From positions 1 through 41,906 of the forward strand of contig JBDHJS010000033.1 in assembly GCA_039586795.1 (NCBI GenBank): a DNA stretch of 41,906 nucleotides, written 5' to 3'. Positions within the stretch are counted from its first letter, which is position 1, and every line of letters starts with the position of its first letter. Positions 24,001-33,000 of the stretch are shown here, in pieces. Made by a program: the position numbers. The stretch is from Gemmatimonadota bacterium. GTDB lineage: Bacteria; Gemmatimonadota; Gemmatimonadetes; Palauibacterales; KS3-K002.

Positions 24001-27000
24001 ACCACCGATGCACGCGAGGACCAGCACCTCGGTCAGCAGCTGCATCACCAAGCGACCTCGCGTCGCGCCTAGCGCGCTCCTCACTGCCGTCTCTCGAGCG
24101 CGCACCGACGCTTGAGCGAGCAGCAGGTTGGCCACATTGGCGCACCCGATCAGCAACACGCCGAGGGTAGCACCGAGCATCGTGTAGAACAGCGCATAGT
24201 GCGCCGGCGGAATGAGCTTCGCCCGCAAGGTCCTTACGGATACGCCCTTACCCTCGTTGCTGGCCGGGAAATCCCTGGCGGTCCGGGCGGCGATCGTCGC
24301 CATCTGCGCCTGCGCCTGCTCGGCCGACACGCCCTCTTTAAGCCTGCCCAGTACTGAATAGCGCGGACCTTCGCCTCGCTCGAATGCCCCAGGCTCGATA
24401 ACCGTCGGCAACCAGTACTGCTGGGCAAAGGGGAACTTAAAGCCCTCTGGCATCACGCCGATGACGGTTCTCGGAACCGCATCCACCAACACTGTGCGAT
24501 CCAACACGTCGGCCGAACCCTCGAACCGCCTCAGCCAAAGGTCATAGCTGAGGACGATGACCCGTTCGGCGCCCGGTTTCTCATCCGCTTCGCTGATCGT
24601 TCGGCCGAGGATCGGCTGCACCCTCAGCGTCTCGAACACACCGGACGAGAAATAGCCGCCCAAGAGCCGTTCCGGCGCACCCCTCTCAATGGAGAAGTTG
24701 CTCATCCTCGTCCAGTACGCCGCTAACTGTTCGAACGCCGTTTGCTGCGCACGCCACTCGGTGAAGTCGTGGATGGGAACGGTGATATCCCCATACTGGA
24801 AGGTTCGCTCCGGGTCGGTCTGATCCAAAGCCAGAATGCGGTGGGATTGTTCAAACGGGAGCTCTTTGTGGACGAACCCGTTCGTGATGTTGAATACTGT
24901 CGAAGTGTACCCGATGCCGAGGCCGAACGTTAAAATCACGATGAGTGACAGGCCCGGATGCTTTCGCAGCATCCGAAATCCGAACCGCAGATCCTGCAGA
25001 GCAAACTCGACTCGCGCGCCTCGCTTCCGGGGAGGACCTCCGCCTGGACCGGCAAACCCGAGACTCGCTGACCGGGCTGAGCGCCATTTCAGCATCGATC
25101 GCGCTGCGCGCTTCAGGCTGTCAAACCACACACCCAACCCGTTGATTGCCAGATCGAGCATCGTACGGGTCCAGTTCAATAAAGATCTCCGCTCGTAGAC
25201 GGCGGTGGACTCTGCCACATACTCCAGCAGGTCGCGTCCGTAGCGCTCGCGGAATTCGCGTGGATAGAGCCTCAGCAGCAGCCGGTAGCTGCGCGGGAAC
25301 GTGGGATGCCCCCACCCGGGATATGACCTCATGTTGCCTCCGCCAGGCTGCCGGTACGCCTGCTCAGCACCTCCGCCGCCATCTTCTTCAGGAATTCAGC
25401 TTCGGAAACGAGGACCGATCGACCCAACTCGGTGATCCGGTAGCAGGTTCGGCGTTCTTCCTGGCAGGCCGCTTCTCCATCGTCAGGCTCCAGCAGGCCC
25501 TTTCTGTCCATTCTGTACAGAACGCGATAGAGGTCCCCTGGCCGCGGCGAAATCCGACCGTCCGTCCGGGCCGCCATCTCGTGGACAATCCCGTAGCCGT
25601 GGAGCGGCCTATCATCCAGAACCGCCAACACCAGGAACTCGACTGGCTTGAGGGGATTCGACCTGTCGTCTCGCTTGGCCATTTGCTCGTTCCTCGCTCG
25701 ATTGCCTACTCGCCATATACGCAATTTGCGTATAACAGGTTTCACCCAACGCAGACCCAGAGAGAGACCGGACTTCTCTGAAAATCCGGCCTCGGTATCA
25801 GAGGTCCGTGGCAGCCTCGAGGGGCAGCTGCCGCACGAAGAACTAGCGGGTATTCTGAAGGAGATACATCGCGCCGGATTGAAGCCACCGCCGGGCGGGC
25901 GCAGCCGACACCTGCATCAGGCGCGCCCGCCCCGAGTCTCACTCAGGGCCAATACTTGGGCCAGATGGGGAAGGGTGCATACCCGTTGGGGAGAGGGTTG
26001 CCGCCGAGATCAATATCGATGCCCACCTGCCAGCACATCACGATCGTGTGGTCGGGTACCTGATCGGCTGGTATACCTCGACCCTCCACAATGTACACGT
26101 AGTCGTACGAGGTGAGATCGGAGCGGCCGGCACCGTGAAGTCATTCGCCTCCAGCAGCACCGATATCGCCTCCACATAATCGACATCATCATCAACGATC
26201 AACATCGTTCTTTCAGTTGACATCATTGGGCACCGCCTGACGATCCTTCACCCGGCGTTCGTAATCGCTATGCGTCCAGAATCTCGTCGATCAGCGGACT
26301 GTCCACATCCATGACGTAGGGCAGACCCGTTACGTCGGCGGCGTTGCGAGTCAACGCGGCCAGATCATCGCGCGACAGGTATTCCGGCGCGAACTTCCGA
26401 CTGCCTGCCATCAGCTGCCGCAGGCCCTGCCCCAACCGCTCGTAGTACGTGTACAACCCGAGCGCGCCAGCCGGCAGCCTCTCGTACTCCTCGCTCCCAA
26501 GTTCTTCACGCAACGAGTGTGCGGTGACGAAGATTTCGTCCCGCGTGCTGCCAAACCTCTCGACGTAAACAGGGATCTGTCCGGCATCGATGGCGCGCCC
26601 AATCGTCTTGCCGACCATAGCGGCCGCCAGCGGGCTCCTCGCCATGCCAATCAGCTTGACGAACGGCGCTCCCAGTGCCAGGCCCTTGAATATCTGGTCC
26701 TCGAACGTGAAGCCGCCTGCCAGTGCCAGCGCGGGTACATGCTTACCTTTGGCCGCCAAACGTTCGGCATACCGGTAGAGCAACGAGTGCAACTCCACAA
26801 CCGGAACGCCCCACTCGTTCATCATCCGCCACGGGCTCATGCCCGTGCCGCCGCCGGCCCCGTCAACGGTCAACAGGTCCAGCTCATACCTCGATGCATA
26901 GGCCAGCGCCTGAGCCAGTGCAGCCGGTCGGTAGGCGCCCGTCTTGAGGAAGATGTACTTGGCACCCATGCTCCGCAGGTACTCGACACGCCTGGCAAAG

Positions 27001-30000: not shown

Positions 30001-33000
30001 GCCACGCCTCGGTTCCCACTGGGCAGGCTGCCTGGCACGCAGCGCCTGTTAGGCCCTTGCAGACGAACGCGTCGCACCGCTTGTCGATGATGTGCCGCTC
30101 GTACTCATCGCGGAAATAGCGCAGCGTGCTGTGCACAGGATTGGCCGCCGAGTGCCCCAGACCGCACATGCTCGATTCGGCCACCGTCCGTCCCAGCTCC
30201 TCGAGAAGATCCAGGTGCCCCAGGGTGCCCTTGCCCTCCGTGATGTCGTCGAGGATCTCCCACATTCGCTGTGTGCCCTTTCGGCACGTGAAGCATTTGC
30301 CGCACGACTCGTCCTTGAGGAAGCGCATGAAGTACTTGGCGACATCTACCATGCACGTATCGTCGTCCATGACGATCAGGCCGCCCGAGCCCATTATCGC
30401 TCCGGCTTCCGTCAGGCTGTCGTAGCTGATGGGGAGATCGAACCTTCGATGCGGTATACATCCGCCGGAGGGCCCTCCGATCTGCACCGCCTTGATACTG
30501 GCTCCGTCCAGCGGGCCGCCCCCGATATCGTAAACAACCTCCTTGATTGTCGTGCCCATCGGTACCTCTACCAGGCCCGTGTTCACTATCTTCCCGACCA
30601 GCGAGAAGACCTTCGTGCCGGTGCTGGTAGGCGTTCCGATACGAGCGAATGATTCTGCCCCTATCTCGATGACAACGGGGACGTTTGCCCAGGTCTCGAC
30701 ATTGTTGATGCACGTAGGCCTGCCGCCAATGCCCTTTTCCGTCGGGAAGGGCGGTCTCTGCCTCGGCTCGCCCACACTGCCTTCTATGCTTCGAATCAAA
30801 GCCGTCTCTTCGCCGCATACGAATGCTCCGGCGCCCTTCACGATGCTGAGGTCGAAGTCGGCTACGGTCCCCATCATGTTCTTACCGAGAATGCCGTATT
30901 CGCGTGCCGTCCTCAGAGCGATCAGCAAGTGCTTGATCGCAAGGGGATACTCTTGCCGCACGAAGACGAATCCCTCGGTCGCGCCGATGGCCAATCCACC
31001 GATGGCCATCCCCTCGATCACGCTGTGTGGATTGCCCTCCAGAATGCTGCGATCCATATACGCGCCGGGGTCGCCCTCGTCTGCATTGCAGACGACATAT
31101 TTCTGAGCAGCGTCCTGGCGCCGCGCCGCCTCCCATTTCTCGGCAGTCGGGAAGCCCGCGCCGCCGCGTCCCCTCAAGCCCGACTTGCGTATCTCGTCGA
31201 TGATCTTCTCGGGCGTGTACTCGGTCAGCACCTTGCTGAGCGCACCGTAGCCTCCCTCGGCGATGTAGTCGAAGAGTCGAATGGGATCGACGTGCTGATT
31301 TCTTCCCAGCAGTGTGCGCTCTTGCTTGGCGAAGAAAGGGATGTCGTCAAGACGATGGCAGTATTCGCCCGTGCTTGGGTCCCGGTAGAGCAAGTGATCG
31401 ACGTACTCGTCAGAGATCACGCTGTCGATGATCTTCGGGATATCCTCGTTGTCGATTTTCGGGTAAAATGCTGTCTGCGGATCCGCGACAACGAAAGGGC
31501 CCATCTCGCAGAAACCCTGGCAGCCCGTAATGCGCAGGCCAACCTGGTCGACGAGCTCGCGATCCATGAGGTGTCGCTTGATGGCGCGCTGCACGTCGTT
31601 GGCGCCGCAAGCCTGGCACGCCGTGCCGGCGCATACCGTGAGGCGCATTTTCCGCCGACCTTGCCGGTCACGTATCCGTTGTCGCAGTTCCCCTAGCTCG
31701 CTAGTCGTTCGGAGTAGTGGCATCGGCGTGTTTGTCTCTTTCCTTGTTGTCTCTTCCTGGCGGGGCTCGAGCCAGTTGACGCCCCTCGATCTGTCCTCAC
31801 CTGCCTAGATCGAGCATGTGCTCCTTGCAGCCGCGGCGCGAACAGAACTGCACGGTTCCGCCGCCCCTGACGAACAGGATGATCATGGGGGCATCACAAT
31901 TCGGGCAGAGTCTCGTGGACCTGAGTTCCGCGTGGCAGCCCGGACAGAAGAAATGGACTACGGTACCGTCAGGTATTTCATACTCGGATTGAATCCGGTA
32001 GTCACCGTAGAGGCTGCTCAACCTCACCCAGCCGTGCTTCCTGTGGAACGAGGCCGTCACGCGCACCATGGGATATCCGTCCAGCAGGTGATCATGGGTC
32101 ATCAGGCTGCAGTTGCAGTTCGGACAGGATACTCGCACTGCAAACGCCTGTTCGTCAGCGGTCATCTTGAGGATGTTCTCATCCCGGCAGGCGTGTTCGA
32201 GAATCGTCCGGATATCACCTTCCTTGACATTGCGGTAGTACTCGCCGTCGATGACCGCGACCGGACCCAATGCGCAGGCGCCGAGACAGTTCACCGTCGA
32301 GAGCGAGAACTCCCGATCCCCGGTGGTCCCGCCCACCTTCACGCCCAGACGTTGCTCGAAGCTTCTGAGAACTGCGGGCGACCTCCGCACGTGGCATGCA
32401 GTACCCATGCAGACGGATACCAGGTGTCGGCCCCGCGGCTCGAGGCTGAAGCCCTTGTAGAACGTCGCCAGGCTGTAGATATCGACGAGCGAGCGCCCGG
32501 TTCTGCTCGCGACTATCTTCAGGGCCTCCTTGGGTAGGAAGTTGTACTCGGCCTGGATGTCCTCGAGCATGGAGATTATGGAGCCGTATCTTCCGTTGTA
32601 CTTGTCGACCACCCTGAAGACGTCCTCAGGGTTCATGCGCGTTATCATTCTCCGACGGCCTCTCTCTTGACGAATCGAGTCCCGGTAGAGCTACTGGTAT
32701 TCCTCGCAGTGCCAGACGCCGCCCTCGGCGCGCGAGAATTCGCATGTCTCCCAGCCATCGCAAGTACGGCACAGTCCCAGCAGCGCGGCCTGTTTCGCCG
32801 AAACGGGCGCCGGGCGCTCCGCGGCAGGAACCGCCGGCCTGGCTTCCTGACCGCCGCCGTTCACCGGTGGGTAGCGGCGGTATTCATCGCACTGAAACAC
32901 CGAGCGAGGCTGGGACTCCAGGTAGGTGCAACTGGAAGCGTTCACACACGTTGCACAGAGGCCTTTCAGCAGCTTCGTCGATTTCACGGTTTCCTCCTTT

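Follow-up and report, generated by a model that had tools for sequence, protein, structure and literature searches.

What does a hydrogenase-type NADH electron module do in an operon whose only catalytic-type subunit is a stand-alone FMN barrel? The question is raised by a stretch of 41,906 nucleotides from a Gemmatimonadota bacterium, which was analysed as a whole (the window). The operon is conserved in many anaerobic bacteria and joins this module to a pared-down relative of glutamate synthase, named F here. Substrate, direction, binding and bifurcation are what we infer below; the complex probably converts 2-oxoglutarate and ammonium to glutamate and back.

The operon and its relatives

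The following features are found in the window.

26268..27851, minus strand: F, stand-alone GltB-type FMN (synthase) barrel, 527 aa counted from ATG
27879..28556, minus strand: A, short BfuA/WorA-like subunit, 225 aa
28553..31723, minus strand: B, HydB/BfuB core with a C-terminal GltD/NfnA-like FAD-NAD(P)H domain, 1056 aa
31797..32648, minus strand: C, HydC/BfuC with a Cys-rich extension, 283 aa
32691..32987, minus strand: X, small Cys-rich protein, first gene of the operon
33037..33052, minus strand: probable sigma-54 (-24/-12) promoter
33232..34587, minus strand: sigma-54 response regulator of the NtrC type, probably starting near 34587
34580..36316, minus strand: sensor histidine kinase, partner of the response regulator

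The survey's finding was a unit of four genes, and C, B, A and F are indeed adjoining ORFs on the minus strand. The reading frames of B and A share 4 nt, and the gaps between the other genes of C-B-A-F are about 27 and 73 nt. No terminator-like site was found 3' of F. The extent of the unit had been drawn too narrowly, as X, the sigma-54 control and the Cys-rich tails of A and C were overlooked; the full order is X-C-B-A-F. At least 595 relatives were found. Among the best 80 of these loci, a tblastn filter placed A next to F in 75, B in 68 and C in 60, close to the earlier count of 74, 70 and 60. We found no description of the operon or of the F family in the literature, covered mostly through open-access papers.

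X-C-B-A-F is probably under sigma-54 two-component control. In 20 of 38 relatives a sigma-54 consensus is located 60-320 nt 3' of the stop codon of the regulator gene, and in 0 of 38 on the opposite strand; shuffled sequences are expected to give 0.08. In the window's promoter one consensus G is replaced, and the same is observed in relative L014. The NtrC-type regulator is present in 40 and the sensor kinase in 36 of the best 80 of at least 595 loci, and many of the other loci are cut by contig ends.

Subunits A, C and X

A contains only 2Fe-2S and 4Fe-4S domains, and its best match is WorA (9mqx_A, E 8e-39). Ligands for A1, A2 and A4 are kept, and there is no A3 motif and no H-cluster. This Cys pattern and the match to WorA are those of a Type 2 Bfu enzyme, in which a BfuA with A1, A2 and A4 but lacking A3 and A5 accompanies a separate catalytic subunit. 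The earlier description of a conserved C-B-A-F unit with F as sole catalytic-type partner and a Type-2-Bfu-like A is supported. The closest known system is WorABCSL, the Type 2 tungsten aldehyde oxidoreductase-Bfu of Acetomicrobium mobile (9MQX; PMC12318220, seen in part), which gives the best sequence and fold match to A, likewise with A1/A2/A4 and no A3. B and C share its core, and its catalytic subunit is also separate and has relatives that occur without the ABC module. However, the partner in WorABCSL is a tungsten enzyme, whereas here it is an FMN barrel and WorS is absent. In addition, A here has an 8-Cys tail, C an 8-Cys extension, and B lacks B3/B4 (compared with the available part of PMC12318220).

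The C-terminal tail of A contains eight further conserved Cys (177-220), kept in 69-70 of 70 relatives; the model of A is weak in this tail (mean pLDDT 69). C is NuoE/HydC-like, its best PDB matches are HydC (E 1e-34), and its C1 ligands C80/85/121/125 are kept in 51-52 of 52. Its extension of about 125 aa carries eight Cys conserved in 52/52, belongs to no Pfam family and is absent from some relatives. X is about 98 aa long if translation begins at a GTG preceded by a ribosome-binding site; the start called by the ORF finder is 33011. Eight Cys are kept in 44/44 aligned relatives of X; no Pfam or NCBIfam family was found for it, and its Atlas clusters are named 'hypothetical protein'.

Two forms of the B subunit

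B is NuoF/HydB-like, with matches to A. mobile NiFe-B (E 1.5e-204) and T. maritima HydB (E 9.6e-166). It contains the FMN/NADH, SLBB and B1 domains of a BfuB (PF01512, PF10531, PF10589) and a thioredoxin-like 2Fe-2S domain, B5, at residues 23-101. Its C-terminal part is a GltD-like DPD_II/Pyr_redox_2 domain, located where the B3/B4 ferredoxin domain would be; no two-cluster motif is found at the C-terminus. Since B3/B4 is a defining feature of the Bfu family, this B falls outside the formal definition, as worded in the available part of PMC9304861. The term 'electron-bifurcating' had been applied to the module, with the reservation that the B of this genome may not bifurcate. With B3/B4 missing here, the term fits at best the relatives with a short B.

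The 60 near-complete B genes comprise 42 long forms, 16 short forms and 2 fragments. B3/B4 is thus missing from 42 of the 58 classifiable genes. Fifteen short forms were examined, and each has two ferredoxin motifs at its C-terminus, the B3/B4 feature of the Bfu family; the sixteenth belongs to locus L054. The split reported before was 44 of 60 GltD-fused, with the ferredoxin motif in 14 of 16 short forms. Short-B forms may belong to one of the unassigned clades of the Bfu family survey or to its clade 45. In the midpoint-rooted B tree the short form is basal and recurs. Swaps between the ferredoxin and the NADPH tail took place at least three times, with six changes on the best tree.

The long architecture has been described before. 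In sub-type I BfuB of Hydrogenedentota [FeFe]-hydrogenases, DPD_II and a FAD/NAD(P)-binding domain take the place of B3/B4, precisely the arrangement of the B described here (PMC11406978, from the part available), but there A carries an H-cluster, whereas here A has none and F is the catalytic subunit. The Nfn-Bfu/StnABC transhydrogenase (9N5U, 8OH5; PMC12018979, likewise seen in part) has a homologous NADPH-binding GltD-like domain, and a further likeness is the Lys at the cluster-ligand position, present in 42 of 43 long forms (a count that includes the long B of a neighboring operon at L054). In that enzyme the domain belongs to A, where it lies in the mid-potential path, and B3/B4 is retained in B; here the domain is part of B and replaces the ferredoxin branch.

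These observations bear on whether the module bifurcates at all. ABC and F could form a simple NAD(P)H:F reductase, in which the GltD-like domain feeds F as GltD feeds GltB, or ABC could be a separate NADH/NADPH transhydrogenase that is merely co-regulated. We consider this possible, at somewhat under one chance in three. Loss of B3/B4 from most B genes agrees with it, and in glutamate synthase a GltD-like domain is a linear entry point for NADPH electrons, according to the available part of PMC8097209. L054 points the same way: its own B is short, and a neighboring operon carries a long B of the same kind that serves a molybdopterin enzyme. On the other side, the long forms keep every bifurcation signature. 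By the criteria of PMC7311640 and PMC9304861, each consulted in part, A221 and M223 are found in 60/60 B sequences and F301 and GGPSG in 60/60, with F301 taken as the Phe matching the NADH-binding Tyr of Nqo1, as residue numbers in the two papers do not map exactly. The B2-site ligands (Cys, His, Cys, Cys) are present in all 58 long and short forms, and the C1 ligands are retained as well. The basal and recurring position of the short form also argues against a purely linear reductase.

F is a pared-down relative of glutamate synthase

A domain search with F returned only PF01645 (E 1.3e-13). Its score of 51 bits compares with 340-517 for true GltB/GltB2. F matched no NCBIfam family, and PDB sequences gave nothing meaningful; a PDB search with an F profile gave designed TIM barrels only. 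Profile-profile alignment was more informative: hhalign paired F with the GltB FMN-domain profile at 99% probability, and a single-sequence alignment to E. coli GltB reached 80%. A new structure model has a pLDDT of 88, against 62 for the model of the survey's finding. Glutamate synthase is the top Foldseek match to it and, in a VIA search, has the most aligned residues (354). The FMN-barrel fold proposed earlier is retained. The substrate was left open then, and the profile alignment and the gene neighborhoods now favor the glutamate synthase domain and nitrogen metabolism in particular.

The residues of F aligned with GltB include E151, Q194, K220, Q223, K226, K303, D330, G334/G335/G337, S339 and P340, which are present in 75 of 75 diverse F proteins. 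F thus carries the synthase-site motifs on an FMN barrel. For 2-oxoglutarate, Lys, Glu and a loop-7 Thr align with residues that we take to bind it, and the distal Arg does not align cleanly; R246, R273 and R276 are candidates for holding the distal carboxylate. The four N-terminal Cys (C29/32/36/40) noticed before are confirmed as invariant in the same 75 proteins. With GltB, Fd-GltS and archaeal-type GltB2 (PF01645; 1OFD, 6S6S; PMC8097209, seen in part) F shares the fold and core motifs, and further likenesses to glutamate synthase (PMC8097209, same part) are the GltD-like domain in its operon and its nitrogen-assimilation neighbors. Unlike these enzymes, F has no glutaminase, central or GXGXG domain, and the C-terminal three-Cys [3Fe-4S] motif is absent, with no Cys at the aligned positions; the four N-terminal Cys are found instead. 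Databases label F 'glutamate synthase' despite the missing glutaminase part.

F may act on another amine or 2-oxo acid, such as methylamine or a different amino or hydroxy acid, and its nitrogen neighbors would then reflect a general link only. We judge this improbable, with about one chance in four. The FMN subunit of N-methylglutamate synthase uses methylamine. F is only about 16% identical to glutamate synthase, hydroxy-acid oxidases and IPP isomerase reach equally high fold scores, the distal-carboxylate site is uncertain, and a motif at 271-276 is specific to the family. In 7 of 60 loci a canonical split GltB is in one cluster with F, and a plain duplicate function is not obvious there. 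Against another substrate, the motifs shared with GltB are invariant across the F family, and no recurrent transporter or catabolic gene for such a substrate was found among 97 neighbors scanned, of 243 candidates.

Distribution and nitrogen context of F

What is new here is that F is a common gene, mostly found without the module. It is present in 164 of 301 and 110 of 401 genomes of two large anaerobic phyla, whereas the module is found in 20 and 1 of them. F is thus not specific to the module, and its usual occurrence without ABC fits the simple reductase or separate transhydrogenase discussed above. However, the A subfamily (defined at 269 bits or more), found in 20/301 and 1/401 genomes, always occurs with F: F is present in all 21, none of the 702 genomes searched has this A without F, and 20 of 23 A-subfamily genes are at most about 5 kb away from F. 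In the F tree, module-linked proteins form one clade (SH-aLRT 100) and a second, divergently linked group.

In 17 of 40 loci, genes for glutamine synthetase, NrpR, an ANTAR regulator, split GltB or glutamate dehydrogenase are no more than about 7 kb away from F; of 40 control windows taken on the same contigs, 2 contain such genes. This points to 2-oxoglutarate, ammonium and glutamate as the substrates. Such neighbors are found in the two phyla alike, and the F proteins concerned are spread over several branches of the F tree. In the phylum of G003, 6 of 37 genomes have an ammonium transporter no more than about 12 kb from F; in G539 and G439 it directly adjoins F. A scan for NrpR operators 5' of F was negative: of 8 NrpR-adjacent loci, 2 have a site with one mismatch, where 0.7 are expected, and 0 have an exact site.

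Use of glutamine through a separate glutaminase subunit was considered and rejected for this genome. In agreement with the earlier statement, no split-GltB glutaminase subunit, no GXGXG subunit and no full GltB were found in the genome, which is 97.8% complete; tblastn with split-GltB subunits and the E. coli GltB N-terminus gave no match. Such use is possible where split GltB genes adjoin F. Canonical GltB/GltB2 is present in only 11 of 46 module genomes; within the phylum of G003, mutual exclusion of module and GltB is not significant.

Proposed reaction and electron path

We give an even chance to a glutamine-free glutamate synthase/dehydrogenase in a sigma-54-controlled soluble Fe-S flavoprotein complex, fed by NADH together with ferredoxin or NADPH. 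The products of X-C-B-A-F would assemble into this complex. F would be the synthase domain working without glutamine: it would take 2-oxoglutarate and free ammonium and reduce the imine to glutamate at FMN, reversibly, like a flavin glutamate dehydrogenase. Its N-terminal four-Cys cluster would stand in for the [3Fe-4S] entry point. By analogy with WorABCSL, electrons may pass between the B FMN and F via B1, A1, A2, A4 and the Cys-rich tail of A; a prediction of F with A, FMN and three 4Fe-4S clusters scored 0.01, which speaks neither for nor against contact between the two. The short-B core would most likely confurcate NADH and reduced ferredoxin, as other Bfu enzymes do. In this genome an NADPH-type FAD domain replaces the ferredoxin branch, and the donors would most likely be NADH and/or NADPH, not ferredoxin. 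Where F occurs without the module, as in most organisms, its donor is probably ferredoxin.

At assumed concentrations the glutamate couple lies between -203 and -381 mV, a range accessible to NADH, NADPH or the NADH/ferredoxin mean. We lean modestly toward synthesis over breakdown. In the opposite direction, glutamate would be oxidised to 2-oxoglutarate and ammonium, and low-potential electrons from reduced ferredoxin or NADPH would pull the uphill transfer to NAD+, the branches meeting at the B FMN. In lactate dehydrogenase/Etf, low-potential electrons similarly pull lactate oxidation with NAD+. We hold this specific catabolic role to be unlikely, although it overlaps with the preferred synthase/dehydrogenase, which leaves this direction somewhat short of an even chance. 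At 1-100 mM ammonium the glutamate couple is -203 to -292 mV, above or near NAD, a position that excludes it as a mid-potential donor to ferredoxin. Glutamate dehydrogenase-like genes adjoin the module in L036, L045, L065, L077, L189 and L194. GltB is missing from 28 of 33 main-clade genomes, and an ammonium transporter from 22 of 26 module genomes outside the phylum of G003. Within that phylum, however, all 20 module genomes have the transporter, and 4 of the 5 divergently linked modules have ammonium transporters nearby. In L176, L178 and L191 the module has NrpR at its side, which also argues against breakdown. The mid-potential couple would be NAD, a role it does not have in described Bfu enzymes, and the available part of PMC9304861 contains no Bfu enzyme working in this way. 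Its main text never mentions glutamate, and one text file of its supplement (8,449 characters) gave 0 matches.

More broadly, and with the odds against it, F may be a widespread third route between ammonium and glutamate in anaerobes, free of ATP and glutamine and based on flavin and Fe-S clusters. The operon would be its flavin-bifurcating version, its low-potential branch repeatedly swapped between ferredoxin and NADPH, and it would possibly confurcate NADH and NADPH or use NAD as mid-potential couple. If the substrate is confirmed, nitrogen assimilation (GS-GOGAT, GDH) gains a further enzyme, found in 54% and 27% of genomes sampled from the two phyla, and if the proposal is true the Bfu family gains an amino acid as third substrate. 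Short and long B are a natural pair for asking if ferredoxin can give way to a GltD-like NADPH domain in the Bfu mechanism, which PMC11406978, in the part available, leaves as a question.

Distant F homologues are present in two cultured, harmless anaerobes. The protein WP_025436739.1 of Peptoclostridium acidaminophilum has 41% identity to F. Four RNA runs, of which a small share each was searched, gave short contigs only, mostly from relatives.

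Organization and recurrence of the operon

The previously claimed unit of C, B, A and F is present on the minus strand of the window. A small gene, X, heads the operon.

Operon features (window coordinates, strand, description)
33037-33052: predicted sigma-54 site, one mismatch to the consensus
5' of C: X, small protein with eight conserved cysteines
31797-32648, minus: C, matches HydC of bifurcating hydrogenases
28553-31723, minus: B, first 560 residues match HydB, remainder matches the NADPH domain of NfnA/StnC and GltD
27879-28556, minus: A, closest to WorA in sequence and fold
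26268-27851, minus: F, PF01645 is the sole domain match, and is weak

The C-terminus of A contains eight additional cysteines, conserved in 69-70 of 70 relatives. The extension of C also has eight, kept in all 52 loci with the extension.

Each part belongs to a known family. The operon is a Type-2-Bfu-like module whose catalytic partner is undescribed. In the accessible text of the Bfu survey (PMC9304861), Type 2 combines additional catalytic subunits with an A subunit that has A1/A2/A4. The claim that the subtype is absent from that survey holds for its main text, which lists no glutamate-related type and contains "glutamate" 0 times. We found no description of the operon or the F family in the open literature; the survey's supplement may include members with short B.

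The gene order C-B-A-F recurs in many phyla, as claimed. In the best 80 loci of at least 595 relatives, F neighbors A in 75, B in 68 and C in 60, a small revision of the earlier 74, 70 and 60. The missing neighbors are mostly due to contig ends. In the same 80 loci, a histidine kinase adjoins the operon in 36 and a sigma-54 activator in 40. In 20 of 38 loci, a sigma-54 consensus follows the activator at a distance of 60-320 nt; the opposite strand has 0 and shuffled sequence gives 0.08.

Two ORFs of 243 and 261 residues (36484-38015, minus) are located between the two two-component pairs of the window and have no Pfam or NCBIfam match. A response-regulator/thioredoxin-reductase fusion adjoining a cNMP-domain histidine kinase (38072-41189, minus) is not kept beside the operon in the best 80 loci.

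The B subunit

The module had been described as electron-bifurcating. The signatures A221, M223, F301 and GGPSG (from the available part of PMC7311640) are retained in 60 of 60 B subunits, and the B2-site ligands in all 58 long and short forms. BfuB is defined by a set of domains including the ferredoxin domain (PMC9304861, accessible text). Short B forms fall within this definition because B3/B4 are present (15 of 15 examined). With locus L054 corrected, 42 of 58 classifiable B subunits, including that of this genome, have a GltD-like domain instead and fall outside the definition. This long architecture is already published for [FeFe]-hydrogenases, with predicted activity (PMC11406978, available part).

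A tree of 56 B cores, which left out L054 and incomplete genes, has 6 exchanges between the two tails, at least 3 of them forced by strong branches. The swaps suggest that the GltD-like and ferredoxin tails may be interchangeable low-potential branches. L054 contains a second C-B-A operon directly 3' of F (12438-19717, plus), in which B is long and GltD-fused and A is a molybdopterin protein of the formate dehydrogenase-like kind. The long architecture also serves a molybdopterin enzyme there.

Coupling between the module and F

Searches in three phyla indicated that F is common and mainly single-copy. It is found in 110 of 401 genomes from the Bacillota-labelled phylum, 164 of 301 from the Desulfatiglans-labelled phylum and 4 of 201 from that of the window. 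Two cultured anaerobes also have homologues, as do Asgard archaea, Thermoleophilia and clostridia. A score gap (269 versus 245 bits) sets the A subfamily apart from other ferredoxin-like subunits. This subfamily is found in 20 of the 301 and 1 of the 401 genomes, all with F. Of its 23 genes, 15 immediately precede F, another 5 are in divergent orientation no more than ~5 kb away, and the remaining 3 are on contigs other than that of F. Since the A subfamily always occurs with F and F often without it, the module depends on F, not vice versa. Aldehyde oxidoreductases likewise exist with and without ABC (PMC12318220, available part). In a quick tree (90 rows), the F proteins linked to the module fall into a single supported clade, in addition to which there is a second, divergent linkage.

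Seven homologues (P0133, P0144, P0147-P0149, P0158, P0166) are degenerate, lacking the GQGAK-type and Gly-loop motifs, and may be paralogues without catalytic activity or regulatory subunits. P0133 and P0166 retain the four N-terminal cysteines. In Acetoanaerobium noterae (L083:7868-11903, plus; a 2.6-Mb replicon listed as plasmid), an F homologue lies amid two ParA/4Fe-4S P-loop and two NifB/NifX-type genes.

Substrate and direction

We analyzed ~15 kb around 60 F genes, selected to span the score bands and to lie on long contigs, scanning 97 of 243 candidate neighbors. Glutamine synthetase recurs in 11 loci, an XRE-cupin regulator in 9, NrpR and an ANTAR regulator in 8 each, split GltB in 7 and glutamate dehydrogenase in 3. 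In a matched test, a core nitrogen gene is near F in 17 of 40 loci versus 2 of 40 control windows (p 1.3e-4, with queries picked post hoc and loci that are kin rather than independent). In the Desulfatiglans-labelled phylum, 6 of 37 genomes have an ammonium transporter no more than ~12 kb from F. The clade of the window itself shows only a weak signal: among the best 80 of at least 595 relatives, a glutamate dehydrogenase-like gene is found in 4 loci, and glutamine synthetase or NrpR in 0.

In glutamate synthase, 2-iminoglutarate is reduced at FMN and the ammonia comes from the enzyme's own glutaminase domain (PMC8097209, available part). Glutamine synthetase is encoded in the source genome (97.8% complete), as are two glutamate dehydrogenases, but neither a full GltB nor a glutaminase subunit was found there. 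We therefore infer that F uses a free amine, ammonium being the simplest choice.

The standard potential for the glutamate couple is -135 mV. With this value and assumed concentrations, the couple is at -203 mV (100 mM NH4+) to -381 mV (1 micromolar). The NADH and ferredoxin mean is -390 mV. NADH plus ferredoxin, or NADPH, could power ATP-free glutamate synthesis. Comparable confurcation onto high-potential acceptors is proposed for Nuo-Bfu and Rub-Bfu (PMC9304861, accessible text).

We lean modestly toward glutamate synthesis over breakdown. The nitrogen-regulon neighbors count for synthesis. So do two counts that include many incomplete bins: all 20 module genomes of the Desulfatiglans-labelled phylum have an ammonium transporter (14 of 17 F-only, 12 of 17 F-less), and GltB (threshold 340 bits) is present in just 11 of 46 module genomes. 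Counting against synthesis, the transporter is present in only 4 of 26 module genomes outside that phylum, many again incomplete, and the source genome has none. The NrpR operator test upstream of F was null, which also counts against it.

Other features of the genomes

The other PF01645 protein of the source genome (C29:~12600-14200, plus) is of a different, intermediate-scoring type (287 bits). It keeps the [3Fe-4S] motif, and its N-terminal domain appears Rieske-like by eye. Intermediate scores (290-323 bits) are also found in many of 80 genomes compared. Seven genomes (G413:C4, G454:C33, G613:C90, G553:C4, G522:C96, G490:C21, G430:C1) contain very long ORFs of 1900-2550 residues whose PF01645 domain is divergent (208-243 bits) and which may represent an unusual fused glutamate synthase; six of the seven carry the divergently linked or unlinked A subfamily. 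In the source genome, a glutamate dehydrogenase gene immediately precedes one for a 2-oxoacid:ferredoxin oxidoreductase (C55:31944-34262, plus), which suggests amino-acid catabolism in this organism. The window also contains glycine cleavage P-protein subunits, an NAD-kinase-like gene and M1 and M24 aminopeptidases (1643-5833 and 17605-22511, minus).
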